NCBI GenBank assembly: GCA_963717465.1
Contig: OY970340.1
Location: 1,920,001-1,984,000 of the forward strand
Direction: 5' to 3'
Length of the DNA stretch: 64,000 nucleotides
Origin: Candidatus Bathyarchaeota archaeon
GTDB lineage: Archaea; Thermoproteota; Bathyarchaeia; Bathyarchaeales; Bathycorpusculaceae
This document shows positions 17,592 to 36,745 of this stretch, one piece after another; positions within the stretch are counted from its first letter, which is position 1; the number at the start of each line of letters is the position of its first letter. A program made the position numbers and the translations under genes. The notes under the pieces are model-generated. The model worked only from the letters and a program-made list of their open reading frames with translations. It was not told the origin of the DNA and did not search any database.

Positions 17592-17608
17592 AGATTTAAT
17601 TTTAATCT
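17592..17608. repeat. Degenerate copy of the 17-bp palindrome (AGATTTAA-T-TTTAATCT)
   Basis: Matches GGATTAAAWTTTAATCC with 3 mismatches; purine-rich left flank, CAAACT repeats on the right. Confidence 0.5.
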
Positions 17609-17713
17609 TCAAACTCAAACTCAAGATTCATTTTGGCTTCTCTTTGTAAAGAGAAACAAATGACTTTGATCTCGGTGGGTCTATTACCGTGCGCAAATTT
17701 GTTCTTCAGTGAG

Positions 17714-18622
17714 CTACTTAGACAGGAACCTCCAAGATAGAACGATTCCAATTGCTGATAATATTGCTGCAAAGGCAATCAAGACTGCAAAATCCACACC
17801 AATGCCGAATGTACTTGCAGAGTTGAGCAAGAGGTATCTTGTCGCGTCGTTAGTATAGCTGATGGGGTTGTACTTTACGACCGTTTGAAGCCAATCAGGC
17901 ATTATAGTTGTTGGGAACAGTGCATTGCTTGCGAATATCAATGGCAGACTAAGCAGGTTAACTATTGCTATTTGTGTTTGCCAGTCTGATGATCTTAATG
18001 CTAGCATTGTAAACAATGCTGATAGGCCCATTCCCATTAGGAATATGGCTGTAAATGCTCCTGCAATTCCAAGGACGCTGAACTGACTTACATCCATACC
18101 TAGTAACACTGCGATGACCAGGATTATGGCACTTTGAACCAGTGATCTGACGACACTTTGAAGGATTTTGCTCATCACTATTGTTCCACGTGCAACAGGT
18201 GTACTTAATGCTTTGTTCATGAAGCCGAATCTTCGGTCAAAAACCACTGACATCCCGCTGAATGATGAAGTGAAGACAACTATGAAGGCAAGCATTCCAC
18301 AGGCTAAAAATGAGAAGTAACTTGTGGTCCCGAAAAAGTGTAACAGTATTGCGTTTTGTTCAGCTTGTGTGACTCCCGGTCCTGAGATGAAAGATCCGAA
18401 GTTTAATGCTTTCCCGAATAGTCCAAGCCAAACTACAGGTTGGATTAGTGATAAAAGGAGTTGAATTGGATTTGTGTACCATTTTCTCAAGTCTCTGTTC
18501 GTAAGTGCCCAGAGTGCATGTAGCGGACTTTTGTTTATTTTTGGAGGGTTTCTTGTTGTTTTCGGGGTTACACTTGTTTCTGTTGGTTGCTTTTTTGTTT
18601 CATTTTCAGTCATAATTTTCAC
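17714..18622 (-). CDS. ABC-2 type exporter permease (DrrB-like)
   Basis: Multiple TM helices, DRRFGFM, SNALFP…MPDWLQ…NPISY. Confidence 0.9.
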   Translation of the reverse strand: MKIMTENETKKQPTETSVTPKTTRNPPKINKSPLHALWALTNRDLRKWYTNPIQLLLSLIQPVVWLGLFGKALNFGSFISGPGVTQAEQNAILLHFFGTTSYFSFLACGMLAFIVVFTSSFSGMSVVFDRRFGFMNKALSTPVARGTIVMSKILQSVVRSLVQSAIILVIAVLLGMDVSQFSVLGIAGAFTAIFLMGMGLSALFTMLALRSSDWQTQIAIVNLLSLPLIFASNALFPTTIMPDWLQTVVKYNPISYTNDATRYLLLNSASTFGIGVDFAVLIAFAAILSAIGIVLSWRFLSK

Positions 18623-18625
18623 CTT

Positions 18626-19651
18626 TTATGCTCTTGCTCTGCTCAGAGTTGCCCGGCGACTCATCATATGGAGTTTATCAGATTCTTCTTCTCGCAGTTC
18701 GTGTCCTGTGAATTCTAAGTATACTTCGTCTAGCGTTGGCTTTGTTAATGAGATTTTGGTTACGTGTAGTCCTTTATTTCGGATTAGGTCTGTGATTTGA
18801 GGGGAAGCTTCTTCTCCAAGCTCCACCTTGATTCGGTAATTCTTATCGCTTTTCTTAACATCTTTAACCAATTTTATTTTGGCAATAGCACTTGAAATGT
18901 CGGGTTCCGTTTCTTGAACGGTTACTGTTATCACGTCTCCTCCTATGCTTGCTTTGAGCTCTTCCGGGGTGCCGATTTTTATAATGTGCCCATGGTCAAT
19001 TATGGCTATTCTGTCACAAATCGAATCAGCTTCTTCGAGGTAATGGGTAGTCATGAAAAGTGTCATTTGGTATTCTTCTTTGAGCTTTTTTATGTATTTC
19101 CAGACTGCAGTTCTTGTTTGAACGTCAAGGCCAAGTGTTGGTTCGTCTAAAAATAGTAGTTTTGGATAATTAATTAAGCCGCAGGCTAATTCTAGCCTTC
19201 TGCGCATTCCTCCTGAGAATGTGCTGACTTTTTTGTTTTCGGCGTCTTGGAGCTCGACTAGTCTTAATAGTTCTTTTGCGTGTGGTTTCGAATCACTTCT
19301 GGATATGCCGTACAGGTCTGCGCAGAGGAGGATGTTATTAATTCCGGTCATATCTTCGTCGGCAGTGTATTCTTGTGGCACAACTCCGATGTTGCTTCGC
19401 ACTTCGTTTGCGTGCTTAAGAATATCGTAGCCGCAAACCTTTGCATCTCCAGAAGTGGGCTTTAAAATAGTGATGAGCATATTGATGGTTGTAGTTTTCC
19501 CTGCACCGTTTGGTCCAAGAAAACCGAAAATTTCCCCTTTCTTAACATAAAAGTTGATGTGGTCAACCGCGATTAGAGTTTTATTAAAAACTTTAGTTAA
19601 CCCTTCAACTTTAATTATATCTTCATTTTCACTCATTTTTTTTACCTTCAA
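18626..19651 (-). CDS. ABC exporter ATP-binding subunit (DrrA-like)
   Basis: GPNGAGKTT, FSGGMRRR, LFLDEPT, TTHY. Confidence 0.95.
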   Translation of the reverse strand: MKVKKMSENEDIIKVEGLTKVFNKTLIAVDHINFYVKKGEIFGFLGPNGAGKTTTINMLITILKPTSGDAKVCGYDILKHANEVRSNIGVVPQEYTADEDMTGINNILLCADLYGISRSDSKPHAKELLRLVELQDAENKKVSTFSGGMRRRLELACGLINYPKLLFLDEPTLGLDVQTRTAVWKYIKKLKEEYQMTLFMTTHYLEEADSICDRIAIIDHGHIIKIGTPEELKASIGGDVITVTVQETEPDISSAIAKIKLVKDVKKSDKNYRIKVELGEEASPQITDLIRNKGLHVTKISLTKPTLDEVYLEFTGHELREEESDKLHMMSRRATLSRARA

Positions 19652-20237
19652 TTTTTTTTGTTAATTTTCCAAATTTTTCAGAAGTATCATCTATTATTTT
19701 TTTCATTTCATCCAATGTTTCTTCAGAAAAGTTTTCTTGCAAGGCATTGCTCAATTGTAACATTGCTCGACCAGCACGCATGAATGTTTCCCGAACGATC
19801 GCGGTCTTTTCAGGAGGAACTTTTCTAAAGAAGTCGCCGAAGGGCCTTTGCTGAAAACCCATTGTTTCCTTATATTTTCCCATAATGTTTCTTTGATTTT
19901 CGAGTAGTACTTTTCCTTTTTCATTGAGCTCGTAGCGTTTCATGCCGTTTTCGGTTGGGAGTTCTCTTATGTAGCCGCTGTCCTGCAGATAGGCTAGAAG
20001 AGGGTAGATTGAGCCTGGGCTTGGTTTCCAGAATCCGCCAGTAAACTTTTCGATATTTTCGATTAACTCCGATCCAGATAGGGGCTTTTCATTAAGAGCA
20101 ATTAGGACTTGGTGTCGAATGAATCCTTTCGGAACCGTGGCGGTGTGTCGTATCCATTTGCGCTTTTGCTGCAATAACTGTTTTTCTTCGCGCAGTTGTC
20201 GTCTTATTCTATTTCTTTCTCTCCGCTCTTCAGCCAT
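19629..20237 (-). CDS. PadR family transcriptional regulator
   Basis: WKPSPGSIYPLL, YELNEKG; first gene of the ABC operon. Confidence 0.9.
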   Translation of the reverse strand: MAEERRERNRIRRQLREEKQLLQQKRKWIRHTATVPKGFIRHQVLIALNEKPLSGSELIENIEKFTGGFWKPSPGSIYPLLAYLQDSGYIRELPTENGMKRYELNEKGKVLLENQRNIMGKYKETMGFQQRPFGDFFRKVPPEKTAIVRETFMRAGRAMLQLSNALQENFSEETLDEMKKIIDDTSEKFGKLTKKIEGKKNE

Positions 20238-20780
20238 AATGTTATGCCGCTATGGATATTATTGGATTAGTCATGTGTGATATCATTTGTGATATTTAAA
20301 GTTGCTGGAAAACAAGTAAATTTTTTTAAAAAAAAACAAAATCAATATGCAAAAAGAGAATTAGCTGATTAACGTTCCAAATTTTCGCCTTTAATGGCCA
20401 ATAAAATATTTTCAGGAACAAAACCGTTAAAAACAATCAGTTTCAGCTGGTTACATTTCAAAACCTTAACAGCCTCAGGATCAATTAATCAATTACATAG
20501 TGCATTCCTGCCTTATGCGCATTCTCCTCAAAAATCTAAGGCAATCATCAAAAGACAAGCGATCCAACTTAACAGCGCCAGCATACTTGCGGGAGTCCTT
20601 GTCATATACGCCATCTTGATCTGTGCCCTTTATAAGCAGATATGCTTTTCCTTCGAGTAGTTGAGCGGTTCAATCGACCAGAGTAAATGAGTTATGCGAG
20701 TAGAGTAAGTGCGGTGAGCAAGAGGATAGAAGAAGAATAAGAAGAAGATAAAGAAGTAGTTGTTAATGAAGAAGAGAGAG

Positions 20781-20797
20781 AAATTAAATTTTAATCC
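20781..20797. repeat. 17-bp palindrome copy (AAATTAAA-T-TTTAATCC)
   Basis: Right arm perfect; preceded by a GA-rich low-complexity tract. Confidence 0.6.
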
Positions 20798-20845
20798 AAA
20801 AAAGAGTGTTCAGTAAAAGCAAGTTACTCAAACATGGTGATCTTT

Positions 20846-21296
20846 TTATTGCACAACTAAGACAGGGCATTTAGCTAAATGAACAATTCTTTCACTTGTG
20901 GTTCCCATGAAAGTCTCATGCACTCTACTTAATCCTTTATGACCAATCACGATTAAATCAAAATTTTTTGTTGCATCAACGATTTCGTGAATCGGATTAC
21001 CTTCTTTTACCAAAGGCAAAAGAGTCATGTTTGGTTTAAATTCTTTAAGCTTGTCAATTACATTAGCTATTGCCTGTTCACTCCTTTTTTTTCTTTCTTC
21101 TATGATTGATGGATCGAATTTTTCGATTGGTACGTTCCCAGCCGCTCCAAGCCAAATATCTGTAGGCGGCGGAATTTGAACAACATTTAAAATAGTAATC
21201 GAAGCATTCAGTTTTTCAGCTAAGTCTACAGCTGCATCCACAGCTCTTTTTTGAGTTTTCAGAAAAATCAACAGATGCCAATATTTTACTTATCAC
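20846..21296 (-). CDS. Universal stress protein (UspA family), homopolymer frameshift near 21250
   Basis: GTG start VISKILASVDFSENS in the adjacent frame; DLIVIGHKG…GTTSERIVHLAKCPVLVV. Confidence 0.88.
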
Positions 21297-21658
21297 AAAA
21301 ATAGTTAGGCGTTAAACGCTTAATAAATTTTTTCCGCACTGAGCTGGTTGTTAAGTTCTGTTTTTCTTGTTTTAAACCGAGCTTAGTAGTATACTCAATT
21401 CTTTAATGTACGTGTGTTCTTATTTTATTTGATTCTGGTTTCTTTAGCGGAGTATACTAGATTCCGACATTGTTTTTCGAGTATATCCTTTTTCCCTTAG
21501 GGATATACGCGTTTTTTTTATGTTGGTGTAATACTTGAATATCCTGATTTATGCTTGAACATCCTTTACTTGAAATGATATAATCTTTCTTCTTGCCTGC
21601 CTTTTCAAGCAATTTTCAAGCAAGGCAGAATTAACCCGTGTGTGTGAGAAAGAAGAGG

Positions 21659-21675
21659 GGATTAAAATTTAATTC
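21659..21675. repeat. 17-bp palindrome copy (GGATTAAA-A-TTTAATTC) overlapping the methyltransferase stop codon
   Basis: 16/17 match to the consensus. Confidence 0.65.
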
Positions 21676-22268
21676 AGACAACGTTCCCCGACTGTAACGA
21701 CTTGCCACAGTGTCCACAACCTTCTTTGATTTCGAACCTGAAATCCAGCACGCCTAAAAGTTTCCCGTATTGCGTTTGGATTGTTGGTTCGAAAATGACT
21801 GATGAACTTGGATAATCCCAGCGGTAGCCAAAAATCGGCGATAAACAATAGACCGCCTACTTGCAAAACACGTTTTATTTCTCTTAGACCTTGCTCTTGA
21901 TCTTGCCAGTGATGAAACGAAGCCGTACTGAAGACAAGATCAACCGATTCGTCAGGTAAAGGGAGCGATTCAGCCTTACTAATGTAGAATTTTGCGTCAG
22001 GCGTTAATCGGCGGGCGTTCTCGATCATGCCGTCAGCTGGATCAACGCCGATTAACTGTGCTTTGGGCCAGTACTTTCTGGCTTTGCGGAGCAATCGTCC
22101 AGTCCCGCAACCGACATCTAAAATCGTGTTAGGGGTATGTCCTTTTTCAGCCATGTTTAGCACGCGCCTCTGAATTCGGTCGAAAAGAAACCGCTGCCCT
22201 AACGAATTCTCATAAGTCAAGGACCAACGATTGAAGCGTTCAATGTCATCCGTTTTCTTTACAGCCGT
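21669..22268 (-). CDS. Class I SAM-dependent methyltransferase (start uncertain; ORF track extends to 22394)
   Basis: ILDVGCGTG, AESLPLPDESVDLV, SFHHW. Confidence 0.88.
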   Translation of the reverse strand, partial: TAVKKTDDIERFNRWSLTYENSLGQRFLFDRIQRRVLNMAEKGHTPNTILDVGCGTGRLLRKARKYWPKAQLIGVDPADGMIENARRLTPDAKFYISKAESLPLPDESVDLVFSTASFHHWQDQEQGLREIKRVLQVGGLLFIADFWLPLGLSKFISHFRTNNPNAIRETFRRAGFQVRNQRRLWTLWQVVTVGERCLN

Positions 22269-22421
22269 ACGTGATCCCTCAAATTTGCAATGACTCTTTG
22301 TATTTTTTAGCGTGTACACTATAAATGGATTTTTCAGATTTTTACTTAACTCTTTACTCCATTCTTCCAGATATGGTATTTGGATTATGTGCACCGAACA
22401 ATCATGTACATACTTAAGTGA

Positions 22422-22631
22422 CTATGGTACAGGCCAATCTTTGAGTCTAACGTTCTCTGAATGCAGCTGTCCCTCGGTTGCCCAGTTTGTCTTCGGGACC
22501 TCATAAATGATAATCTCAACTGCTTGACGGGGTATGCCTAACTCCTCAAGCACCCTCGTCATCCCTTCAACAAGTTTCTTCTTATTCTCTTTAGTAATAC
22601 CTGCCCAAACACTTACTTGAACCAAAGGCAA
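22422..22631 (-). CDS. 4-oxalocrotonate tautomerase family protein
   Basis: N-terminal catalytic Pro (MPLVQV), EVPKTNWATEG. Confidence 0.9.
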   Translation of the reverse strand: MPLVQVSVWAGITKENKKKLVEGMTRVLEELGIPRQAVEIIIYEVPKTNWATEGQLHSENVRLKDWPVP

Positions 22632-22903
22632 TGCAACTACCCCAAATAAAATATCCTTTTCTACCTATTAAAACAGTATTACTCATTTCCTACTATACCT
22701 GTGCACTATACAGAAATTGGCTTGTTATAGGAGTATGCTCGATTCCGATTCTATAGTCTTATCCTATATTGATTATGATTTTATTCTATACCTTTCTTTA
22801 TGCCCTGAGTTTGGTTACTGCATATGCTGAACCGTATACACTGCTTTCTCTGAATCGTTGATTTTATGCCCGAAACCACTAAAAATCGTTGGATGGATTG
22901 GTT

Positions 22904-22920
22904 GGATTAAAATTTAACCC
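22904..22920. repeat. 17-bp palindrome copy (GGATTAAA-A-TTTAACCC)
   Basis: 16/17 match; left flank gttggatggattggtt, right flank caaaataacctaac. Confidence 0.75.
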
Positions 22921-23197
22921 CAAAATAACCTAACTTGGATTTTTCATTTTTCAAGATTAAACAAAAACTGCTGCTAATATTTTCAGGGTTTGCAATTATT
23001 CTTATTTGTTCTTTTTCTGCTGTCCATTATAATTTAGCTGATTTAGGTACTAGTACAATTACTTTTGTCATTTCGGGACTTTTACGACTTTCATTATACG
23101 ATTGATTCTTATTTCTTTGGCAAAAAGGAAAAAGTAAAACTGTGATGATATGCAGGAACAGGATGTACGCAATCAACGAAAATTAGCTAGAAGATTT

Positions 23198-23371
23198 TCA
23201 CTCTTCTTTAATCCTTTTTTCGTACTCCTCATCCGTTATGATACCTTTCTCAATTAGCAAGTCAAACGAGGCATAGTGCATCTCGTCGTTGCTAAATCTG
23301 AAAGTTTTAGCCTGTAGCTCACGAAGATCACATGTTTTTCGTCTAGTAGTATTTTTACGCAGAAATAACAT
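23198..23371 (-). CDS. Small (57 aa) ORF ending in a SHOCT-like motif
   Basis: Manual translation ends FDLLIEKGIITDEEYEKRIKEE*; shorter than any ORF in the track. Confidence 0.4.
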   Translation of the reverse strand: MLFLRKNTTRRKTCDLRELQAKTFRFSNDEMHYASFDLLIEKGIITDEEYEKRIKEE

Positions 23372-23505
23372 TGTCCTTGTTTTTCGATTTTCACATGCCG
23401 TTCCCAGAATTTTCCAGATTCACTTTTTAGCTTCAGGAATTTTCCCATTTTTCCGGGATTATTCGCGGGTACGACTAGCTCAATTTTTATTCGTGTTTAT
23501 TGGAT

Positions 23506-23895
23506 TTATGTGTTCAATACTGTTATTTTTGTGTTTTCGAAATTTAGGAAATCCTTGTCTTTTGTAATCAGCGTTTCATTGTTTGATGTTGTCATGGCTA
23601 CTATGAGCACGTCAAATTCGTTTATCATCTTGCCTTCTTTTGCCAGTTTCTTGTAGGCTTTGACTGCTTCTTTTATGATGGAATCGTTGAACTCATACAT
23701 GATAAATTTATTAAGCAATTCAGAAACAAAGCCGATATCTTTCTCCGGGGTTCCTCTTAAGATTTCGTACTTGTTGATAACCGTGGTGGCAATCTGTTCT
23801 TTATTTGAATATGCTTCAATCAAATTTAGAGCCGCTTGCTTTCCTCTTAGTATGTCAATGATTATCGGCGAGTCAAATACAACCATTAAAATCAC
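23506..23895 (-). CDS. vapC: PIN-domain toxin, VapC family
   Basis: VFDSPIIID, KYEILRG, EFDVLI, LITKDKDF. Confidence 0.9.
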   Translation of the reverse strand: MILMVVFDSPIIIDILRGKQAALNLIEAYSNKEQIATTVINKYEILRGTPEKDIGFVSELLNKFIMYEFNDSIIKEAVKAYKKLAKEGKMINEFDVLIVAMTTSNNETLITKDKDFLNFENTKITVLNT

Positions 23896-24155
23896 TCGAC
23901 CACGATGTTTCTTGGGACTGCCCGCTTTCTTCCTTTCTTCAACTCCGCAGTTATTGTCTTTGCGCTATCTTCACTAATAGGTTCATGAGCCTTTAAGAAA
24001 TCGATTATTTTCTTTGGATCCCCTTTGATCTCGCATCTTTCAATGAGCGACTTTAGTAGTTCTGTAAAAGACATGCCGTTTTTTATTCGAGAAAGCTCAA
24101 AGTAAACTTCATCTGATATTGATATTACTCGCACCAATGGTGGATACCCATTCAA
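23892..24155 (-). CDS. vapB: Antitoxin, VapB (DUF217-like)
   Basis: VISISDEVYFELSRIKNGMSFTELL; overlaps the vapC start. Confidence 0.85.
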   Translation of the reverse strand: MNGYPPLVRVISISDEVYFELSRIKNGMSFTELLKSLIERCEIKGDPKKIIDFLKAHEPISEDSAKTITAELKKGRKRAVPRNIVVE

Positions 24156-24361
24156 TGATATATCTATACATACATATATACATTATTTCTGATTAAACTT
24201 CCCGATCAAAAGGCAAAGAAATAACCCAAAAGAGTTTCAGAAGACCAAATAATGCTTGAGGTAGCAGGTTGTAAATGTGTCTTTCATGAGTGTTAAGTTA
24301 TCCATAATTTCAGCGATAACTATTAATATGATCTTGGTGATTCATGCGTTTAAACGGCTAT

Positions 24362-24427
24362 GGCTATGGCATTAGCCTTGGGCTCTTTGCAGTCTGAACC
24401 GCATCTTTGGGTGCTAATAATGCCTAC
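24362..24427 (+). promoter_or_regulatory. Fluoride (crcB) riboswitch
   Basis: GGCTA-TGGCAT-TAGCC … AACCGC…GC-TAATAATGCCTAC fits the fluoride aptamer pattern (P1 plus GGCAT/ATGCC pseudoknot), directly upstream of crcB. Confidence 0.9.
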
Positions 24428-24461
24428 CTTAAATTGGAGTAAACTAAGGTTGGGCAAAAAG

Positions 24462-25159: not shown

Positions 25160-25249
25160 CCAAACAACCTTCAAAATTAACAAGGTCAACTAAGACAAAT
25201 ACTCTTATCCATTAGGACAGCAACTTAACCCAGAAATATTTCACTGTTA

Positions 25250-28684: not shown

Positions 28685-28746
28685 AAACTGATGCTCTGAA
28701 AAGTGAAATAGTGCTCAAAAATTGCTTATCATTTCTGAAAAACAAA

Positions 28747-29154
28747 TTACGGTGGAGGCTTTTTTTGGGCGTACTGGTATCGGCGAGGCTTCCCAATTCG
28801 CGTAAGGATGTTATCTTTAACCAAATCAACTAATGCATGGGCAACAGCAGTGCGGTCATAGTGAAATCCTTTTCTTGCGAGTTCAGAATGGACTTCATCC
28901 AGGTTTTTTGGGGTATTGAACCAGTTTTCTTCCCAGAGTTTTTGGATTACGCCCTTGCATGTTTCCGCTCGAGGTGGTGGAGCTGGTCGCTCGGCTACTT
29001 GGGCAAGACTTGTGTTTCTTAAGCGCTCAGTTACTGTAGCGAGTATTCTGTCAACAGCGGTTTGGATTTGGTCTTCTTGAGATTCTATTTCAAATTCTAT
29101 GTCGCCGATTTTCATTTTTACTCGTATTGGTGGTTTTTGCTGTTTTTCTGTCAA
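28747..29154 (-). CDS. Winged-helix DNA-binding protein, divergent from nurA
   Basis: ENWFNTPKNLDEVHSELARKG…LVKDNILTRIGKPRRYQY. Confidence 0.65.
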   Translation of the reverse strand: MTEKQQKPPIRVKMKIGDIEFEIESQEDQIQTAVDRILATVTERLRNTSLAQVAERPAPPPRAETCKGVIQKLWEENWFNTPKNLDEVHSELARKGFHYDRTAVAHALVDLVKDNILTRIGKPRRYQYAQKKPPP

Positions 29155-29243
29155 GTCTTCACCTATTGTATATTGTATTGTACAAGATGCACATGCACAA
29201 TATTTAAATATTTCACCAATAAGCTATTGTATATTGGTGAATC

Positions 29244-30329
29244 TTGGTGATTGAACAATATACTGTAACAACTCAAACATATAACTTTCCACAACACACT
29301 ACAGACACAACGCTCCCACAGCGCTTCCTAGAACAAAGCATACATTCACTAAAAAAAGTCCAACAAAAAGCCGAAGCGTTTCAATTAAATCCGCAAAACC
29401 TTCAACAGTCCGTCACAGCACAGCAATACCAAGCCAATCTGCAACTGAAGCACGAGGCAATTTCGCTGAAACCAGATCACCAAGAAACAACAATTGCAGC
29501 AGTTGACACTTCCACAATAAAAATCGGCGAAACCAGGACAGGCGTACTAATTGCCATCAGAGGAGCAACAACTTGGCGGCAAAACCGAACCTACAATTAT
29601 ACCCGCCTTGGGCCGTTCATATTTCATATCACCGAAGAAAACAAAAACCAAGTTTTTAACACACTTGAAAAAGCTTACTTCAGCGCAACTGCCCAAGGCA
29701 GCCATCAAGCAGCACCAAACCTTATGCAGATACCCACAAGGCTGGCCAGCCTGTTGGAAAGATGGTTACAGGCTATGCTTGCGAAAACCGTTGTTAACGG
29801 TATACTCCTTTTTGATGGCTCATTAACCTCAGGTACGTTTGACACTCCTGCCCAACGAATGAAAGACATCTTGTGCAGTGCAAGGCGGAATCATACGACT
29901 GTGCTTGCCTTCTCAAAAATGACTACGTTGCGGGTGAATGGTTATCTTATTACTGATCAATTGCCCAATCAAGATCCACCTTACCTGCTTGAAACCTCTA
30001 ATTTGTGCTTTAAGCCGCCGCTTGTAATGTTAGGCGATGTTTACGTGGCTAGATTGAGTCGTGCAAACTTGGCTTTTCGACTTGACATTGACAGTGAAAT
30101 TCCGATTCTGCAAAGGCTGGAGGCGATGCAGAAATTGTTGGGTAATGATGTTTACTCGCAGAGTTACCCTGAAACCCTCAGGCTATCTCATATTTTGTGC
30201 ACGTTTACAGCCAACGAGTTGTTGGCGATTCAGCATTTTATCACCCGTAAGCATGGTATTCAAATCGTCAACAGACCCGACATGCATAGACTGCTTTTCG
30301 GCTCGTTTGGAAAAGGAGAGATTAGCTGA
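29244..30329 (+). CDS. nurA: NurA-family nuclease
   Basis: IAAVDTS, LLFDGSL, FSK, YPETLRLSH conserved NurA pattern. Confidence 0.8.
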   Translation: MVIEQYTVTTQTYNFPQHTTDTTLPQRFLEQSIHSLKKVQQKAEAFQLNPQNLQQSVTAQQYQANLQLKHEAISLKPDHQETTIAAVDTSTIKIGETRTGVLIAIRGATTWRQNRTYNYTRLGPFIFHITEENKNQVFNTLEKAYFSATAQGSHQAAPNLMQIPTRLASLLERWLQAMLAKTVVNGILLFDGSLTSGTFDTPAQRMKDILCSARRNHTTVLAFSKMTTLRVNGYLITDQLPNQDPPYLLETSNLCFKPPLVMLGDVYVARLSRANLAFRLDIDSEIPILQRLEAMQKLLGNDVYSQSYPETLRLSHILCTFTANELLAIQHFITRKHGIQIVNRPDMHRLLFGSFGKGEIS

Positions 30330-31789
30330 TGAAACTTTACAAGAAAGAAGGCAATATCCTGCAGATAATTGGTTTTCCAGCGGAAAATGCTGAAAAAGGC
30401 GATTACCTTCTTGTTGAAGACCCTGATGCAGCGAAAGCTTTAATCGCTCAAGTAATCGACGTCCAATTCGCCGCTGTGCCAGGTGTGCTGGAGGAGTTGT
30501 TGCGGACTCTTCCGGATGGCGGTGAATCTTTAAGGGGGGAAGACATAGACCCGATGGAAATTGCCCCTCATATCACGTATATTCAAGATGCGAGCCTTGT
30601 GATCTGTAAAATAAGGGCGACTGTTGAAAATGGAATGCTTAGTCCAAGCAGCAGTTGGCTGCCAAGTCGTTCACAATCAACCATAAAAAAACTCTCCATT
30701 CCGTTGCTTATGAAGCTGGCAAAGATCGAGGGTAAGCTTCCGATAATTCTTGGGTGCACTAAAGACTCGTCACTTCTAACGATTGATGCTTCAGCACTGG
30801 ATGGAACATTAAACATTATAACGGGTAAGAAAGGTTGTGGCAAATCGCACCTTTCCAAACTCTTAATGACAAACTTGGTGGGCTTCAAAGCAGCAGTGGT
30901 AATTTTTGATTTGAACGGTGAGTACTCAAGCCTGGGCATGACAAACGATGGGAAACGAAACATGTACTACGATAAAATACACTCGCTGGTTCCTTCGCAA
31001 AACTTCAAAGTAGCCCTCGAACAACTTCATTTGAACACGGTGATGGGCATACTGATCAACGCGTTGCATCTGCCTGGCAATTCAGCCCGAGAGTTTAGGC
31101 GACTCTGGAAAACGCTTAAGGAAAAAGGAAAACTCAACATGCAAGAACTAGGCGAAGCCATAAGCAACTTAAACTGCAACCAGCACGTGCGCGATGCGTT
31201 AGCTTCACGGGTCCATTCACTTGCTAACTCTGGATTCTTCACTGATTGCCCAGGAGAAGCAACTTTACTGGATGAATGCTTCATTAAAGCAAAAGAAAAC
31301 GGGGGCGCAATAATCATAAACCTGCGCAATACCTCTAACATCGACCGCCAAATCGTTGTGGAGTACGTTCTTGGCAAACTCGTTGATTGTCTTTCAAGTT
31401 GGAAGTTAAACGCTGTTTTCTTGTTCGCTGAAGAGGCGCATCTTTACCTGCGCGAAACATACTGGGATGACATCGTAACACGTATGCGACACTTTGGAAT
31501 ATTCACTACTTTTATCACTAATCAGCCTGACACCATTCAGGAAACGATTTATCGTCAAGCCGACAACATTTTCCTCTTCAACTTCACCAATGAACACGAC
31601 TTGGAAGTGGTTTCAAGGGCTGCACGCGTGGACGCTGAAACAGTAAAGTCAATAGCTAAGGATTTGCCCCCGCAACAATGTTTGACCTTGGGAAAAGTCG
31701 TGAATGATTTTCCAATCGTTACACGCATAAGAGCACTTGACATTAAAACGATGGGTGAGACACGCCTATTTTTTAAGAATAAGAATTAA
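30329..31789 (+). CDS. herA: HerA/FtsK-family ATPase (DUF87) with N-terminal HAS-barrel-like region
   Basis: GKKGCGKS, FDLNGEY, AEEAHLY, RMRHFG, TNQP; start overlaps the nurA stop. Confidence 0.85.
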   Translation: MKLYKKEGNILQIIGFPAENAEKGDYLLVEDPDAAKALIAQVIDVQFAAVPGVLEELLRTLPDGGESLRGEDIDPMEIAPHITYIQDASLVICKIRATVENGMLSPSSSWLPSRSQSTIKKLSIPLLMKLAKIEGKLPIILGCTKDSSLLTIDASALDGTLNIITGKKGCGKSHLSKLLMTNLVGFKAAVVIFDLNGEYSSLGMTNDGKRNMYYDKIHSLVPSQNFKVALEQLHLNTVMGILINALHLPGNSAREFRRLWKTLKEKGKLNMQELGEAISNLNCNQHVRDALASRVHSLANSGFFTDCPGEATLLDECFIKAKENGGAIIINLRNTSNIDRQIVVEYVLGKLVDCLSSWKLNAVFLFAEEAHLYLRETYWDDIVTRMRHFGIFTTFITNQPDTIQETIYRQADNIFLFNFTNEHDLEVVSRAARVDAETVKSIAKDLPPQQCLTLGKVVNDFPIVTRIRALDIKTMGETRLFFKNKN

Positions 31790-32343
31790 GCGTTCTTAAG
31801 AGATTTTGGTAGCAGAAAAGCTCATCGGTTAATCTCTTTGGAGGCATGGGCGCTGAAGTGCCTAAAATCAACAGTGCTTCATGAAGCGCTCGTGAAAACA
31901 TGGTTGGAAAGCTTAATTTTATTGTTGATGCAAGCGAGGTTGTTTTCCTGTTACTAATCAGGTTGCGGTGAAAGCGATTAAGAATCGGCTTAAAAGATAT
32001 TTCTTTGTGGCAGATCACTTGGATTTAAAAAATTAATTTCAGATACAGATTATGTGTGCGTAAAGCTTTAAGGGTAAATTCTCAAAACATTGTTTGGGGT
32101 TAAGCTGGACTGCAGTTGATGGCTCGCCATCACATTTGCATCTCCGCATAAACTTAACCCCCCTTACCCTCAACTTACTTCTAAAAAAATTATCGCTAAA
32201 AACTTGCTTGCTATGCAACGAAGTGATGCTGAACAAAAGTTTAGACTCTGTCGATACAATTACTTAAAAATAAAAGTGATTAATCATGACATTAGTTGAC
32301 TGCAATGAATGATGATAATTAGGAAGCGTCAGAAAACCTGAGG

Positions 32344-32904
32344 ATGGTTAAGCCTAATTCTTTTCCAGCTTTGCCTTTTCTGACTTTGGAGGAACAAAGA
32401 GAACGTCGAGAAAAGCGATTCACTGTGTTCGTAAATAATGCTGAAGTCTCGGATAACATGGAAAATCTCGGAAAACCAAGTCATACTCAAACTTTTCAGT
32501 TGAAAATTGCTGCTCGACGTCATCGAGTTTATGAGTTGCATGCTTTAGGGTTGAAGCATCTTCAGATTCAAGAGGCTCTTGCTAAGGAAGGGCAGTTTTG
32601 GAGTTTAGAATACAATCGTGAGGATTTGAGAAGTGAGACAACTGAGGAAAAGCGTCAGGAGCTTGAGCGTTTGCAGTCTTGGGATATTGCTATGGAAGAG
32701 GTTCGTAAAGTCAGTTGGAGTTTCGTGTTCGATTTGATTGAGCATTTTACGCCTCGTAAGAGTCCAGATGTGTAGGTTCAATTAGCCAATCAAGTAAAAT
32801 TTGAAGAAAATCGACAATACGAAAATAACTTGCTAAAGACGCTGTCGCCAGAAGACCAAAAAGTACTCTTACAGCTGAAGAAATCCTTACACAAGCAAAT
32901 CTGA
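32344..32904 (+). pseudogene. Unknown HTH-like protein (possibly terminase small-subunit-like) with an in-frame TAG at 32773
   Basis: RRHRVYELHALGLKHLQIQEAL helix-turn-helix-like segment; frame continues past the TAG (VQLANQVK…LLKTLSPEDQKVLL). Confidence 0.4.
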
Positions 32905-32950
32905 AACAGCAAAATAAGTTAAACCGTAATTAATTTTTTTTAGGTTGGTT

Positions 32951-32967
32951 GGATTAAATTTTAATCC
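32951..32967. repeat. 17-bp palindrome, perfect copy GGATTAAA-T-TTTAATCC
   Basis: Left flank taggttggtt, right flank caaacccaaactc. Confidence 0.85.
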
Positions 32968-33114
32968 CAAACCCAAACTCTGCTTCTCATATACCTCTCA
33001 ACATGCACAACACCAACACAACACAACATCAAATGATCCAAACACTTTTAGAAAGATAATTAGTGTGAGAAATTTTAAATAAAACATACTTCAAAATAGC
33101 TAACTGGTTTTTAT

Positions 33115-33513
33115 ATGAAAGGATTCAAATCCCATATTGAGAAGACCGTTGTGGGCAACCACTATTTCAGGCGTGTACTCTACACAGGCAAATACAGTCA
33201 GCTTGTTCTGATGAGCCTTAAGCCAGGCGAGGAAATTGGAGAAGAAGTTCACAGGAAAGTCGACCAATTCTTCAGATTCGAAAAGGGCACAGGAAAAGTC
33301 TCTATAGATGGCGTCAATAAATTAGTCACTAATGGAGACGCTGTTATAGTGCCTGCTGGAGCAAAACATAACGTAATTAATACATCAAAGACTAAGGAGC
33401 TTAAATTGTACACCATTTACTCGCCCCCAGAGCACAAGGACAAAACAATACGTAAAACAAAAGCTAATGCTTTAGCGAAACCAGAAGAGTTCGATGGGAA
33501 AACTAGCGAATAA
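33115..33513 (+). CDS. Cupin domain protein
   Basis: GEEIGEEVH…DQFF, VPAGAKHNV, LYTIYSPPEH. Confidence 0.92.
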   Translation: MKGFKSHIEKTVVGNHYFRRVLYTGKYSQLVLMSLKPGEEIGEEVHRKVDQFFRFEKGTGKVSIDGVNKLVTNGDAVIVPAGAKHNVINTSKTKELKLYTIYSPPEHKDKTIRKTKANALAKPEEFDGKTSE

Positions 33514-33750
33514 TCCACTCTTTTTTTTATTTAGAGCACGCTTTTTTACACCCTTATATCATATTTTTAGTTTACAGTGGGTAATTTTTCCATCATTTTT
33601 TACCCCTCACCTTTATACTTTATGTTATATTTTTAGATTGAAGGGGTAATATTTTTAGTATTTTTTCCTCCTCAAATATTATTAATATATGCCTATACCA
33701 ATATACCTATACCAACCTTGTATTTGTTCATGATTTTTTCTAAATTTTAT

Positions 33751-33810
33751 GGTTGATTGGTTGGTTGGATTAAATTTTAATCCCCAAAACCCAAACCCAA
33801 CTAATCAAAC
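33751..33810. repeat. Perfect 17-bp palindrome (33767-33783) inside a ~60-bp imperfect inverted repeat
   Basis: ggttgattggttgg…GGATTAAATTTTAATCC…ccaactaatcaaac. Confidence 0.85.
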
Positions 33811-34110
33811 GCCTACACGCCTAACACGTACTGCCAACACGCTTTCCATTTCTTCTCTCTCTTATCCCCCTCAAAACACAATTACAATTACATACAATTA
33901 CAATTACAAAAAATTGAGCGTTAATCAGTCGCTCACTCCTTCCTCTACTTCCCTACTATATTCTATTTTTCTCTTCTCTCTTATGCACACACACAACGCG
34001 TATCACGTGTAGTGTATATCACTCGCGCGAATAATTAAGAATAGAGTGTATATACCTAAACCTCTTAAAATGAAAAGGAATTGAATGAATAGAGAATTAA
34101 GGAAGAAATT

Positions 34111-34875
34111 ATGAACTTATCAAATCTTTCAAGAACGGCGGTGAATACTCTCATTTGCCGAGCAGTTGAATCGGAATTGAAAAATTCCAAATTACATGAT
34201 CCTATGGCGGTTCAGATTTTAGAGACGTTGTTATCAATTTCGTCAGAAGAAGACAAGAAATGGATATTAAAGTGGAAAAAGAGGTATGGAAGTTTTTGGT
34301 CTGATGACAGGAGACAAGGTATTGAAAGGGTAAACAAGTTCGATAAGATAACAAAGGACTATATTTCCCAGAATAATAATTGCCATATCGTTAATCTGGG
34401 TTGTGGTCTGGATACCATGTACTGGCGAATCCAATCCGATACGTGCACATATATCGAACTGGATTTACCAGAAATTATTAATCTAAAAAAGGAACTTTTG
34501 GGGAATCAAATTCCCTATGAAATGATCGCATATTCTGTATTAGATACAAACTGGCTTGATACAATAACTGAACCCGGCAGTTCAAATTTTCTATTCATTG
34601 CCCAAGGATTACTCTATTATTTACCCAGAGACGGCGTTATTCATCTTTTTAAAACGATTTCGGAAAAAGTAAACAAATCTGAAATAGTATTTGATTTGAT
34701 GCCTCGCTTTTTAACAAGAGGGTTATTTAAATGGTTAGAGAAATTAGTTTTCGGAATTACGTTCACGTTTAGCGTGAAGAATGAATCCGAAATCGAATCA
34801 TTTGCGAACGGTCTCAAAGTTACATCCTTTGATAAGGCGTTCCCATTTCAATATATTACTGTTAACATAAATTAA
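34111..34875 (+). CDS. Class I SAM-dependent methyltransferase (LCM/TcmP-like)
   Basis: CRAVES…DPMA, IVNLGCGLDT, ELDLPE, AQGLLYYL. Confidence 0.9.
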   Translation: MNLSNLSRTAVNTLICRAVESELKNSKLHDPMAVQILETLLSISSEEDKKWILKWKKRYGSFWSDDRRQGIERVNKFDKITKDYISQNNNCHIVNLGCGLDTMYWRIQSDTCTYIELDLPEIINLKKELLGNQIPYEMIAYSVLDTNWLDTITEPGSSNFLFIAQGLLYYLPRDGVIHLFKTISEKVNKSEIVFDLMPRFLTRGLFKWLEKLVFGITFTFSVKNESEIESFANGLKVTSFDKAFPFQYITVNIN

Positions 34876-34913
34876 ATCCTTATAGTGGACTATATCAATA
34901 GAGTTTAGTTTGT

Positions 34914-34946
34914 GGATGCTCGCGGCGGAAGCCGCGAGTAGTTCCC
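34914..34946 (+). other. GC-rich hairpin between convergent genes; resembles an IS200/IS605 end and may also act as a terminator
   Basis: ggatgCTCGCGGC-GGAA-GCCGCGAGtagttccc. Confidence 0.5.
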
Positions 34947-34952
34947 TTTCTT

Positions 34953-36533
34953 TTAGAACCTAGCCCCAGTTCCTACTTTGTCAACTGCGTAACCACCTAT
35001 CTGTAGTTTTTTGTCCCAGTTGGCTATGATTGCATTCATTCTGTCTGCTACATCTTTTGGTGGTAGTGGAGCAGGAAATTCCTTAACGATCTTGTTGTAC
35101 AAAGCAAATGCGCGGTCATCCATGTTTAACTTGTCTTCAATCCACCGTAAATATTGTCTTGTTTCGTATAGCCCATAACCGTGACGCATGGGATAGAATG
35201 CGTTGTCTAGTAATTTTGGAATGATCGTTTTATCTTTTAGGAAATCCCCCCTGGGACCTTTTGTAAGCCATGTTTCAGCCATAAAGGCATCGGGTGAAAA
35301 GTCGAATTCCTTAAGCTGAACCGCCATATTACGAATCCATTCAGCGGCTATAGCGTAACCCCAGGGATTGATTCCGTTTGGACCTACGGTTGCAGACCAA
35401 AATCCAGTTTGATCAGTACCACTAATCAACGCCAGCAAAAGACTACTAGTATTAATGCCCGCTTGCGTGTCTGACGCGCCCGCTGGACCTCCTATGCTTT
35501 GGCCGGGCCACATGGTCGCCTTTGGTGCACTGTATGTTCGGTGCCAAAAGTTAACATGAAGAGACAAAGCTGTGGTCAGTAAGCCTAATTGTTGGGTGTA
35601 TGGATCCATTGGCATCACTAGGTCATAGGTCATGACGGGGATATGCCCTTTTGCAATTCCATCTTTTCCCAGACCTAAACCAACGATCATTCCTGTGGAT
35701 GAAGCAACGGTTACTGCGTAAGCTCCAGTAATGCTTGAGGGGCCTTGGAAACCAGGTATGCAAACATCCGTGAAATCTATAAGCAGAGGCGTTCCTTTCT
35801 CCCAGCCTTCCAAGACGCCAGTCATTCTGTCACTAGTCTTTTGGCCATAAACTAAGCCTGGTGTGTCTCCATGGTTAGTTATGAACGGTCTCTTACGAAG
35901 CTCTTCAAACCCTCCCAGAACCTCAGCAGCTAACTCAGCGTAACATTCAACATGGTCAATTGCGTCAATGTGCCAAATATGCTTGGTATTGCACTGAATA
36001 TTGCTATTGAGATCATGAGTGTCCACTGGTAAGCCGGCTTCAGCCAAATCCATAGGTAAATACAAGGCACTTGTCATGTCGTACTCGGGGAAGAACTCAA
36101 AAATCTTCTGATCTCTCCAATTGTCTGCATCTGTCGCATCTCGGAATTCAAAAGTTCTTGTAGCTGGATCCCATTTGGAAAACAGAGCCATGACACCAAA
36201 TCCACCACAAAGGGTTCTTCCAGAATTGGCTTCTAAAATACAGTCTTCCTTAGGGTTCCTACCTGGCAGAATGAACAAGCTTGATAATGCATTTATGCCT
36301 TCCACTGCGAGAGATTGCGGTATCATAACAGTGCCTTTCTTCTCGTCAACAATAGTGCAGCCTAAATCCTTGTAGATTTTTTGTAGCTTAGGAGTGACGC
36401 CGCCTATTCCAACTTTTTCTAATAGAAACATTGCATTCTCATGAATTTTCATGAGCTCCTCTTTAGTGGCTATCGGAGGAGTAAACCTTGTAGATGCACG
36501 TATTCCATATCTCATTTTTTTTTTACTTCCCAT
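34953..36533 (-). CDS. Divergent trimethylamine methyltransferase (MttB) family protein, non-pyrrolysine
   Basis: KIHENAMFLLEKVG, LPGRNPKED, LGGFEELRKRP, GPSSITG, GPRGDFL; 526 aa with no internal amber codon. Confidence 0.75.
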   Translation of the reverse strand: MGSKKKMRYGIRASTRFTPPIATKEELMKIHENAMFLLEKVGIGGVTPKLQKIYKDLGCTIVDEKKGTVMIPQSLAVEGINALSSLFILPGRNPKEDCILEANSGRTLCGGFGVMALFSKWDPATRTFEFRDATDADNWRDQKIFEFFPEYDMTSALYLPMDLAEAGLPVDTHDLNSNIQCNTKHIWHIDAIDHVECYAELAAEVLGGFEELRKRPFITNHGDTPGLVYGQKTSDRMTGVLEGWEKGTPLLIDFTDVCIPGFQGPSSITGAYAVTVASSTGMIVGLGLGKDGIAKGHIPVMTYDLVMPMDPYTQQLGLLTTALSLHVNFWHRTYSAPKATMWPGQSIGGPAGASDTQAGINTSSLLLALISGTDQTGFWSATVGPNGINPWGYAIAAEWIRNMAVQLKEFDFSPDAFMAETWLTKGPRGDFLKDKTIIPKLLDNAFYPMRHGYGLYETRQYLRWIEDKLNMDDRAFALYNKIVKEFPAPLPPKDVADRMNAIIANWDKKLQIGGYAVDKVGTGARF

Positions 36534-36728
36534 CTTTTTATGTGCCTTCTAGCACACAATTGAATATGCGCGCTAGCGCATTTAAGATTAGATTACAAAC
36601 CAGCGTAATTTTTTCCATAAAATCGTGAAATTTGTCGTAAATATTACTAAGAATTGCATCATTCACATATTATTTTAGCACAACGTTAACAAATTTTCTC
36701 AATTGAAACGTTCGTTGGGTTGTATGTG

Positions 36729-36745
36729 GGATTAAAATTTAATCT
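36729..36745. repeat. 17-bp palindrome copy (GGATTAAA-A-TTTAATCT)
   Basis: 16/17 match; right flank aaccaaccaac is the reverse complement of the GGTTGGTT left flanks of the other copies. Confidence 0.8.

Follow-up and report, generated by a model that had tools for sequence, protein, structure and literature searches.

A 17-bp palindrome, GGATTAAA(W)TTTAATCC, forms the conserved core of a dispersed intergenic repeat that is clade-specific within Bathyarchaeia, and the polar base composition of its flanks is specific to this palindrome. The dyad consists of two 8-bp arms around a single A/T (8+1+8), with a strongly conserved outer GG/CC (81-83%). It is the commonest specific repeat in the genome of this soil archaeon, in which its core is the top-ranked 14-mer once simple and low-complexity words are set aside. 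Similarity between copies breaks at the palindrome, and pairs of copies bracket whole genes. The dyad may be a protein-bound site that acts as a boundary for breakage or recombination; this reading is favoured tentatively.

Copies and genomic placement

The genome contained 37 copies at no more than two mismatches (11 exact, 13 with one mismatch and 13 with two), of which 35 were intergenic according to crude ORF calls that make 77% of the genome coding. The window, i.e., the whole stretch of 64,000 nucleotides analyzed, held six of these copies, compared to 0.78 expected (P = 1.6e-4). It contained two exact matches, compared to none in 100 shuffles, and eight matches at three mismatches or fewer, compared to a shuffle mean of 0.72 (maximum 2). 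One of the latter, a 3-mismatch match at 10096, has a different inner order and unskewed flanks, and is therefore probably due to chance. The copies cluster, with 14 of 34 neighbor gaps shorter than 10 kb (random mean, 4.05), and form at least 10 separate clusters around the chromosome. Neighboring copies share the same variant (TTTAGTCC) within each of the genomes G000, G003, and G020. The original prediction was partly confirmed, as its observation was real but overstated. Its claims of non-random abundance and intergenic location hold across the genome, and the 17-mer, which it had not recognized, was absent from the papers that were searched. The motif occurs at all seven positions that had been claimed as copies, but it is exact only at 32951 and 33767, and the other five copies have one to three mismatches (Table 1).

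Table 1. Palindrome copies, arms, and genes in the window
Feature	Coordinates	Strand	Remarks
Palindrome copy	17592..17608	.	3 mismatches (degenerate); left GA-rich, right CA/CT-rich
Palindrome copy	20781..20797	.	2 mismatches; 49 nt beyond USP gene stop
Universal stress protein (USP) gene	20846..21271	-	Between two palindromes
Palindrome copy	21659..21675	.	1 mismatch; overlaps methyltransferase gene stop codon
Class I methyltransferase gene	21669..22394	-	Between two palindromes; DNA identity 83-87% in G064 and G021
Arm M2	22680..22903	-	Second copy at 21380-21658
Palindrome copy	22904..22920	.	1 mismatch
Module: 135-aa protein (-), NurA-family nuclease (+), HerA-like ATPase (+)	28747..31789		Presence across genus tracks palindrome
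Palindrome copy	32951..32967	.	Exact; left flank GGTT-type, right flank CCAAA-type
Cupin gene	33115..33513	+	Between two palindromes; own TATA ~40 nt before ATG, T8 run after stop
Palindrome copy	33767..33783	.	Exact
Arm M1	33784..33990	+	G-poor, about 150-200 nt; homologous to arms beside three other genome copies, either orientation
LCM-family methyltransferase gene and about 190 nt upstream	33921..34885	+	96-97% identical in two other species, unrelated contexts
Palindrome copy	36729..36745	.	1 mismatch

Across the genus, the exact 15-mer core was detected in 31 of 61 genomes, and a reversed control gave 0-1 matches. On an aIF5B tree, the motif is restricted to certain clades and is absent from a 20-genome clade except for G055. 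The only NurA match of the genome, together with its HerA-like partner, has the same distribution as the motif. Among the 41 genomes that were at least 90% complete, the NurA-HerA module was present in all 21 with the palindrome and in three of the 20 without it. The link was not significant after phylogeny was taken into account (sign test median p about 0.22), as the 8-9 independent contrasts comprised 3.9 in the same direction, 0.3 in the opposite direction, and 3.8 with no difference. This co-distribution is unplanned and weak support for a link between the palindrome and end resection.

Base composition and folding of the flanks

The polarity that was originally described, C-poor to the left and G-poor to the right, was confirmed in the aggregate over sites: C makes up only 5-10% of the 40 nt on the left side, and G only 6-10% on the right. 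The skew is local and tails off by ~70 nt from the palindrome. A strict two-sided test (≤2 C in 24 nt to the left and ≤2 G in 24 nt to the right) was passed by 10 of the 24 sites at no more than one mismatch, compared to 3.0% of 19,999 random intergenic positions, two of 41 other perfect 8-1-8 intergenic palindromes, and three of 46 viral-contig occurrences of this 17-mer; the reverse-polarity version was passed by a single site (1/24). The other 14 sites were one-sided or unskewed. The skew, which had been assigned to most copies, is therefore real in aggregate and palindrome-specific, but short-range and absent at many copies. Among 133 half-sites, 85 had no more than 10% G in their first 20 nt, and 48 had more.

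The strand running outward from the palindrome consists of A.385, C.336, G.052, and T.228, compared to an intergenic background of.32/.18/.18/.32. All four bases shift as deamination of the strands that run 5'->3' towards the palindrome, with C-to-T and A-to-G changes on them, would predict. On the other hand, the gain of C (+0.155) is larger than the loss of T (0.09), and CT-type and GA-type tracts are also present; simple deamination thus fits poorly. Furthermore, the flanks are simple repeats, and point mutation alone does not make such repeats.

The flanks were also predicted to extend the copy at 33767 into a ~60-bp hairpin (33751-33810), which was not borne out: cognate flanks pair no better than non-cognate ones (3.62 and 4.00 pairs of 12, respectively), and 33746-33805 folded as DNA gave -8.9 kcal/mol with z = -1.24. 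The hairpin of the core has little stability (-3.2 kcal/mol, z = -2.0), and 22 of 200 shuffled sequences fold equally well. Because the core reaches only this energy and the flanks add no pairing, a site in double-stranded DNA is more likely than a hairpin.

Mosaic arms and bracketed genes

At the palindrome, BLAST similarity between copies sets in or breaks off. It spans +2 to +146 for the copies at genome positions 1515606 and 1953767, -1 to +176 for 1139066 and 2957102, -139 to +16 for 3028399 and 3036944, -82 to +16 for 250019 and 1940781, and +2 to +552 for 1940781 and 2643946. One arm family can occupy either side of the palindrome, and arms combine freely. The GA-rich, C-free left arm of the window copy at 20781 has a homolog in that of the copy at genome position 250019. 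Arm M2 contains a conserved 22-bp near-palindrome of the type GTATAG TCGGAATCGA GTATAC, a dyad of the arms that is common to at least five species. Runs of T5-T7 were read by eye 130-270 nt out in arms M1, M2, and M4. Arm M4 was found in none of 60 other genus genomes, and the intergenic arms could not be aligned between species. The left and right arms are not complementary and combine freely, and thus lack the terminal inverted repeats of a MITE; similarly, the end of a non-autonomous element, which was an alternative in the original prediction, is unsupported because neither flank is an inverted repeat of the other.

Single small genes in either orientation lie between copies that are 500-1250 bp apart in G000, G003, G013, and G020. 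They encode USP, cupin, methyltransferase, B12-binding, and nitroreductase proteins, as well as unknowns. Each of the nine bracketed genes examined has a TATA of its own 30-45 nt ahead of the start, and T runs (T5-T8) directly follow the stop in most bracketed genes, well before the palindrome. The palindrome is not a promoter or terminator of the neighboring genes. The bracketing may reflect only that every gap in a gene-dense island has a site. The LCM gene of the window is shared at the identity given in Table 1 with G064 and G021, compared to 72-75% DNA identity for the neighboring NurA/HerA genes and 80-81% protein identity for aIF5B, a contrast that points to gene transfer. In G064, the shared stretch ends 38 nt from a palindrome. 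Palindromes do not delimit the transferred unit on both sides, G021 has none nearby, and more distant LCM loci have no palindrome within 4 kb.

Comparison with known repeats and recombination sites

A Pfam scan of 113 neighboring proteins detected no recombinase, transposase, or nuclease near the sites, and no protein family adjoins sites in more than two genomes. G000 harbors four tyrosine recombinases, all beside tRNA genes; no serine recombinase was found in this genome, and no phage integrase targeting the palindrome was found. Tyrosine-recombinase cores do not typically have a 1-nt center. The species compared, which are too diverged for such a test and have lost synteny around the window, yielded no empty site, circle junction, or inversion. 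parS sites, which work with ParB, are few and lie in a cluster near the origin; the parS-like site that was suggested earlier gains no clear support from the copies, which are spread from 0.25 to 3.04 Mb.

REP/BIME elements are lineage-specific extragenic palindromes in mosaic combinations, mostly after genes, with a strand-specific site, a stable stem-loop, and a cognate RAYT (Y1 transposase) gene flanked by repeats. The palindrome is likewise multi-copy, extragenic, mosaic, lineage-specific, and mostly located after genes. In contrast, its hairpin is weak instead of a stable stem-loop, its site is symmetric and not strand-specific, and no RAYT-type Y1 gene is flanked by its copies; the single Y1 transposase gene of G000 (PF01797, 2333211-2333564) has no copy within about 100 kb. 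Integron attC sites are characterized by an adjacent IntI integrase, promoterless cassettes in one orientation, and an extended folded site, and pdif modules have an 11+6+11 layout. The palindrome resembles attC/pdif modules in its small accessory genes between repeated sites, which form arrays, and of which one was horizontally transferred. It differs in its 8+1+8 layout and in the absence of an extended folded site and of an integrase near the arrays, and its cassettes, each with a TATA of its own, occur in either orientation, unlike those of an integron. The archaeal dif/XerA site is also an inverted-repeat DNA site in non-coding DNA, and is described as a single site with 11-bp arms and a 6-bp spacer (11+6+11; PMC2958812). 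The original prediction had set the motif apart from dif, which is correct, since the palindrome has 37 copies with 8-bp arms around 1 nt, and its flanks do not extend the dyad.

The closest known system, by analogy, appears to be dRS3/NIME of Neisseria. As described there, the dyad-symmetric 20-bp repeat dRS3 (ATTCCC-N8-GGGAAT) delimits, in intergenic arrays, families of non-coding modules that are 30-160 bp long (neisserial intergenic mosaic elements, NIMEs); identical copies flank whole genes and were proposed to serve in integration, deletion, and rearrangement and thereby to promote gene exchange (PMC3898611). The palindrome dyads similarly bound the arm families M1-M4 and bracket whole genes. 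Unlike dRS3, which has about 700 copies, the palindrome is archaeal, has tens of copies, and consists of an A/T-rich dyad with a 1-nt center, and no counterpart of its polar C-poor/G-poor flanks was found in that description of dRS3/NIME.

Possible function of the palindrome

A protein-bound boundary for breakage or recombination is the reading tentatively preferred here. A candidate dimeric, sequence-specific protein would bind the palindrome as double-stranded DNA, and the bound site would be a place of DNA breakage or of stalled DNA transactions. It would therefore become a recombination hotspot that shuffles the modules on either side, i.e., short non-coding arms and self-contained accessory genes. 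The polar flanks might then be a scar. The strand whose 3' end lies at the palindrome, on either side of it, would repeatedly become single-stranded and drift to G+T, its complement therefore drifting to A+C, and slippage during repair would turn the flank into simple repeats. A bolder form of this reading, which is improbable, is that site-specific double-strand breaks are programmed at the palindrome in a single branch of the Bathyarchaeia. Both ends would then be resected 5'->3' by the clade-restricted NurA-HerA module, the 3' tails would deaminate and be refilled with slippage to leave polar G+T and A+C scars, and repair between copies would exchange self-contained gene modules. If so, the repeat would represent a way for archaea to exchange gene cassettes without an integrase, and a natural, legible record of resection length.

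The palindrome could alternatively be a symmetric BRE-TATA-BRE core promoter, possibly portable, with TBP on the A/T center and TFB on either GGAT arm. It would fire short, G-poor, largely unstructured non-coding or antisense transcripts in both directions, and the polar flanks would be the initially transcribed regions. This is a credible but doubtful explanation. The center (TTAAAT / AAATTTTAAT) resembles words of the TATA type with a peak at 31-50 nt ahead of start codons in the genome (46 and 46 TTAAAT in the two peak bins, about 25 elsewhere) and tRNA promoters such as ...TTTAAATCC..., and some tRNA leaders are CA-rich after the TATA. The composition is symmetric outward, as two divergent transcripts would give, and the distal T5-T7 runs of the arms are also consistent with transcription. 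Pyrococcus furiosus has documented two-way BRE-TATA-BRE promoters whose TSSs lie 49-50 bp apart; these share with the palindrome a symmetric, A/T-rich core, which in the palindrome is putatively TATA-like, mirrored flanking elements, and outward-symmetric features (PMC6640164). As described in that source, however, they are ordinary gene promoters with a by-product antisense start, whereas the nine bracketed genes examined use their own TATA nearer the start, and the outer GG/CC of the palindrome, despite its conservation, is not a canonical promoter word. TAATCC has no positional peak, the flank beside the TATA-like center is C-rich rather than A/T-rich, and G-poor sides face gene 3' ends and 5' ends about equally (8 vs. 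9). The absence of arm M4 from the 60 other genus genomes and of the motif from nearly all of the 20-genome clade also argue against a promoter. Furthermore, deamination in a transcription bubble would enrich G+T on the sense strand, which is opposite to the pattern for outward transcripts.

An operator, at which a dimer of a clade-specific global regulator or nucleoid-associated protein would bind the dyad, is rather unlikely. It would regulate adjacent stress or accessory genes, or serve as a roadblock or insulator between transcription units, and stalled polymerases could account for the flanks. The 8-1-8 dyad, its cross-species conservation, and its intergenic placement suit an operator, the dyad precedes the start codon by about 75-155 nt in six of nine bracketed genes, and the long gaps look regulatory because the arms carry the second, 22-bp conserved dyad. 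Stress-type genes seem frequent among the neighbors: USP (4), rubrerythrin (2), SOD, thermosome, an HtrA-like protease, DUF1269/DUF6325 (5), PadR together with an ABC transporter (2), cupin, Rieske, and GNAT. However, sites lie anywhere from 18 to 1084 nt from 5'-facing starts and show no tight mode of distance, many copies lie just beyond stop codons (mean relative position 0.37 from the upstream gene 3' end in tandem gaps, p = 0.02), and placement differs at homologous genes, as the site is upstream of a Rieske gene in G000 and downstream in G013. No regulator gene consistently adjoins the palindrome, and an operator alone leaves unexplained why similarity between copies breaks at the site. 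A REP-like transcribed hairpin acting as RNA, either as a two-way terminator or as an mRNA 3'-end stabilizer, is very improbable. In tandem gaps, copies are closer to gene 3' than 5' ends, divergent gaps hold fewer copies than expected (5/35, compared to 26% of random intergenic positions), and the dyad has T3-T4 runs on both strands. Nevertheless, the weak core hairpin, the lack of pairing by the flanks, the T5-T8 terminators that neighboring genes have right after the stop, and the five copies between divergent genes argue against it. Neither the symmetric TATA-type promoter nor the operator had been part of the original prediction.

Copy Number and Distribution of the Palindrome

The genome under study (G000) is a single contig of 3.05 Mb with a GC content of 40%, in which the window corresponds to G000:C1:1920001-1984000. 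Crude, ORF-based gene calls (3001 ORFs) gave a coding fraction of about 77%, and the long gaps are built from repeats. The exact pattern of the 17-bp palindrome, GGATTAAA-N-TTTAATCC, occurred twice in the window (32951 and 33767) and never in 100 shuffles. At up to three mismatches, the window contained eight matches, whereas shuffles averaged 0.72, which bears out the original prediction in part; seven of these matches are the sites that it had listed, and the eighth (10096) differs in inner order and has flanks without skew. The whole genome harbored 11 exact, 13 one-mismatch, and 13 two-mismatch copies, 35 of these 37 being intergenic by the crude gene call, and the dyad core was the most frequent non-low-complexity 14-mer of G000. 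The copies were clustered: six of the 37 lay inside the window (0.78 expected), and 14 of 34 neighbour gaps were shorter than 10 kb (random mean, 4.05). A hand count of neighbours less than 10 kb apart gave the same central A/T orientation in 14 pairs and a different one in six, which is not significant; these pairs are also non-independent. The half-site TTTAATCC alone was rejected as the unit, since with a G-free tract after it, it is nearly confined to full palindromes. Further frequent specific words, ACAACAGCAGGAGACGAA (about 20 copies), GCGTTCAAAGCATAAACGTT (about 12-14), and GAAAATCTCGGAAAACC (about 9-11), are candidates for additional repeat families of G000.

At up to one mismatch, 12 of 24 same-genus genomes carried the motif; of 16 genomes from the order's other families, three had it, each as a single copy. 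Its exact 15-mer core was found in 31 of 61 genus genomes, the reversed control yielding 0-1 matches, and the dyad is kept even where the intergenic DNA of two species can no longer be aligned. On an aIF5B tree of 56 genomes, the carriers fell into one 27-row clade and, in the other half, a group of nine rows, and a 20-row clade lacked the motif except for G055. A relaxed pattern detected no variant dyad with similar flanks in four complete or near-complete motif-free genomes (G014, G068, G046, and G008). Species-representative genomes contained at least 123 stretches. Of the 80 records listed, about half were Bathyarchaeota/Bathyarchaeia MAGs with the same flanks, and the remainder of the matches listed were scattered single matches and an unrelated gammaproteobacterial family. 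In several Gammaproteobacteria MAGs, the 17-mer makes up the loop or loop-proximal portion of a long GC-rich hairpin (GGGGACGGAG ... CTCCGTCCCC) with T runs after it; this family is terminator- or REP-like and unrelated to the archaeal one. The viral scan returned 46 single, mostly coding-like matches that were used as a control, and a viral origin of the palindrome was rejected. The 17-mer was absent from the literature searched.

Polar Flanks and Folding

The strand-skew inversion that had been described at the copies is real and tied to the dyad, but it is short-range, and more than half of the copies lack it or show it on one side only. Pooled over 35 sites, C amounted to 5-10% across the last 40 nt left of the dyad, and G to 6-16% across the first 60 nt right of it. 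Read outward over 70 half-sites, G was about 6% directly past the dyad, about 10% up to 35 nt, and near background at about 70 nt, without a sharp edge. The first 20 nt of G-poor half-sites had a composition of A.385, C.336, G.052, and T.228, the intergenic background (A/C/G/T) being.32/.18/.18/.32. A strict two-sided test (at most two C in the 24 nt to the left and at most two G in the 24 nt to the right) was passed by 10 of 24 sites with up to one mismatch, and by 1 of 24 in reverse polarity. The same test was passed at 3.0% of random intergenic positions, by 2 of 41 other perfect 8-1-8 intergenic palindromes, by 8 of 25 dyad sites in relatives, and by 3 of the 46 viral-contig occurrences. 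Junctions of a C-poor and a G-poor tract were no commoner across G000 (75 loci) than those of reverse polarity (117), which ties the polarity to the dyad and argues against a general property of the genome. The G-free tracts of G000 followed no orientation rule relative to genes. The flanks are mostly simple repeats, of the GGTT/GGGTTT/GT/GA type on the left and of the AACC/CCCAAA/CA/TC type on the right. This polar signature is unusual.

The dyad core alone folds at -3.2 kcal/mol. The original prediction had extended it into a hairpin of about 60 bp, which was rejected on both fold energy and flank pairing: the 60-nt region folded no better than shuffles (z=-1.24), and cognate flanks formed 3.62 in-register pairs of 12 compared with 4.00 for non-cognate flanks.

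Placement, Bracketed Genes, and Mosaic Arms

Among 35 copies, 26 were located in tandem, five in divergent, and four in convergent gaps, the proportions for random intergenic positions being 57, 26, and 17%, respectively. Copies in tandem gaps were somewhat closer to the stop of the upstream gene (mean relative position 0.37, p=0.02), and the G-poor side pointed towards gene 5' ends nine times and 3' ends eight times. Each of nine palindrome-adjacent genes inspected (from G000, G003, G013, and G020) had a TATA-like box of its own 30-45 nt upstream of the start codon, and most had a T5-T8 run shortly past the stop. The canonical TATA words TTTATA, TTATAA, and TTAAAT peaked 31-50 nt ahead of starts, and TAATCC showed no peak. 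The palindrome was therefore rejected as promoter or terminator of the adjacent genes.

Single small genes were often bracketed by two copies 500-1250 bp apart, in both orientations (see the table); those of relatives include genes for a B12-binding protein, a nitroreductase, and unknowns. Pairwise BLAST of flanks revealed that similarity between copies begins or ends at the palindrome, and the arms (M1-M4, families of non-coding flank modules) recombine freely between copies. For example, the copies at 250019 and 1940781 have one left arm in common and different right arms. Arm M4 had no match in the 60 other genus genomes. A variant half-site was identical between neighbouring copies in three genomes. 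Arm M2 carries a 22-bp near-palindrome of the GTATAG-TCGGAATCGA-GTATAC type that is conserved in at least five species and doubled in tandem in G042. In most cases, 100-700 nt separate this element, which resembles a second operator-type site, from a copy of the 17-bp palindrome. The arms were rejected as structured RNA in view of the Rfam matches given below, and the conserved part of M2 is this DNA-type near-palindrome without a covarying helix.

Positions of the bracketed genes, arms, and associated features (window or genome coordinates; L numbers are loci)
Feature	Position	Description
USP gene	window 20846-21271	bracketed
Methyltransferase gene	window 21669-22394	bracketed
Cupin gene	window 33115-33513	bracketed
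NurA-HerA module	window 28747-31789	135-aa protein (family unknown), 361-aa NurA-like protein, HerA-like ATPase
Arm M1	genome, right of 1953767 and 1515606; left of 1361748 and 1139066	
Arm M3	genome, right of 1139066 and 2957102	
Arm M4	genome, left of 3028399 and 3036944	
22-bp near-palindrome	window 22733-22749 and 21452-21468 (-); L043, L024, L287, L290, L295	
Gammaproteobacterial hairpin	L052, L059, L062, L073, L082, L091, L098, L103, L106, L112, L133, and others	

The LCM-family methyltransferase gene together with about 190 nt upstream (33921-34885) was 96-97% identical in G064 and G021, where it lies in unrelated contexts. As yardsticks from the same genomes, the NurA/HerA genes were 72-75% identical at the DNA level and aIF5B 80-81% at the protein level; the bracketed methyltransferase reached 83-87%. 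In G064, 38 nt separate a palindrome from where the shared LCM stretch stops; G021 has none there. The LCM protein matched five metagenomic loci (69-81% identity), and no palindrome was found within about 4 kb in the three of these that were examined. Synteny with G064 and G021 around the window is limited to the three-gene NurA module. Three runs of DNA contigs against 17001-37000 (0.05 of sampled words each) returned pieces of LCM and methyltransferase genes of relatives, as well as contigs ending in the repeats. Among RNA runs, none was listed as matching 28000-37999.

Candidate Partner Proteins

The 113 proteins near copies included no recombinase or transposase, and no protein family occurred beside copies in more than two genomes. 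G000 contained one Y1 transposase, far from all copies, four tyrosine recombinases adjoining tRNA genes, and no serine recombinase. The NurA-HerA module and the motif had almost the same distribution over genomes. Among the 41 genomes that are at least 90% complete, the module was present in 21 of 21 with the motif vs. 3 of 20 without it. On the tree, this link comprised 8-9 independent contrasts (3.9 the same way, 0.3 opposite, and 3.8 without difference), and the sign test after tree reduction gave about 0.22. The co-distribution is an unexpected lead and not a result; as a lead, it offers a concrete candidate partner for the motif in the only NurA-HerA module of G000. The 361-aa protein has close homologues with Pfam NurA and NCBI's NurA name, and is itself the only, sub-threshold, NurA match in G000; its single-sequence fold had a pLDDT of 40 and was unusable. 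The module is not adjacent to dyad copies in other genomes. It was detected in 33 of 60 other genus genomes, the G021 version being degraded by stop codons; judged by this query, NurA-HerA seems to be missing from about half of the genus. The 135-aa protein (28747-29154) was rejected as dyad binder: the lead was a weak BlaI-type one, and its own promoter region has TGTA/TACA repeats, not the motif. The gene for a 143-aa protein (32344-32775) was rejected as a partner because it is present in only 3 of 61 genomes.

Possible Functions of the Palindrome

The weak hairpin, the strongly conserved 8-1-8 dyad, and the species-specific surroundings point to a double-stranded site that would be read by a putative dimeric protein. 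Among the readings of this site, a boundary of breakage, stalling, or recombination would explain more than the others and is put forward tentatively: it covers similarity that breaks at the dyad, freely recombining arms, the bracketing of genes, their accessory content, one clear transfer, variants shared by neighbours, and the clustering of copies. Such a boundary would also account for the flanks in the correct direction: to either side, the strand whose 3' end meets the dyad is rich in G+T, as would be the case for a strand left single-stranded after 5'->3' resection or, alternatively, at forks or polymerases stalled at the dyad. However, deamination by itself is not enough for the simple repeats and GA/CT tracts, the transferred LCM gene does not have copies bounding both its ends, and the proteins near copies include neither recombinase nor transposase.

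A symmetric BRE-TATA-BRE two-way promoter, for which one study provides a precedent (PMC6640164), would fit the A/T centre and the outward symmetry, but appears rather doubtful; it leaves the conserved GG/CC, the clade restriction, and the mosaic boundaries unexplained. An operator or roadblock of a clade-specific regulator would suit the dyad form and the stress-type neighbourhood; the positions are too variable for it, and we regard it as more doubtful still. Identities with dif and parS are excluded or unsupported, and REP/BIME, attC, or pdif cassettes are looser analogues. We rate the palindrome as belonging among dispersed intergenic dyad repeats. The nearest described system is the Neisseria dRS3/NIME arrangement (PMC3898611).

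A role of the dyad in recombination or breakage would explain how single accessory genes move between species and would provide a sequence handle for variable islands in metagenome assemblies; several metagenome contigs end at the dyad. As a two-way promoter or operator, it would define a clade-specific regulatory class. Either way, the sharply polar flanks would be a rare, locally readable record of putative strand-specific DNA exposure. Bathyarchaeia are abundant, mostly uncultured archaea of soil and sediment, and to our knowledge almost nothing is known of their genome organisation and rearrangement.

Other Features of the Window and Genome

Rfam matches in the window were only a tRNA and a fluoride riboswitch, and those in 16 other loci were only rRNA and tRNAs. 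The riboswitch (RF01734, 40.7 bits; 24353-24433, +) lies immediately ahead of crcB, and thus the longest-ORF call at 24360 starts too early. The tRNA match (37471-37578, -; 44.9 bits) is absent from the ARAGORN list, and its length of 108 nt suggests an intron; a second tRNA like it is found 80 nt away from the copy at 295232 of the genome. A gap of 845 nt separates the 23S rRNA gene (genome 3024516-3027554, -; L046) from the palindrome at 3028399; between them, on the other strand, is a tRNA-Thr, and no 16S match was reported in the 16-kb locus around it. The minus-strand gene run 52797-60726 (7.9 kb) had no DNA match at E<=1e-50 in the 60 genus genomes and is probably accessory or highly diverged. 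Just left of the copy at 17592, the intergenic stretch 17259-17500 is unusually conserved non-coding DNA (72-76% identity in G021 and G064). Between the stops of the LCM gene and an MttB-like gene (34882-34955) lies a 65-75-nt element with 76-87% identity in many genus genomes and up to four copies per genome, possibly belonging to the 3' UTR of MttB-like genes.
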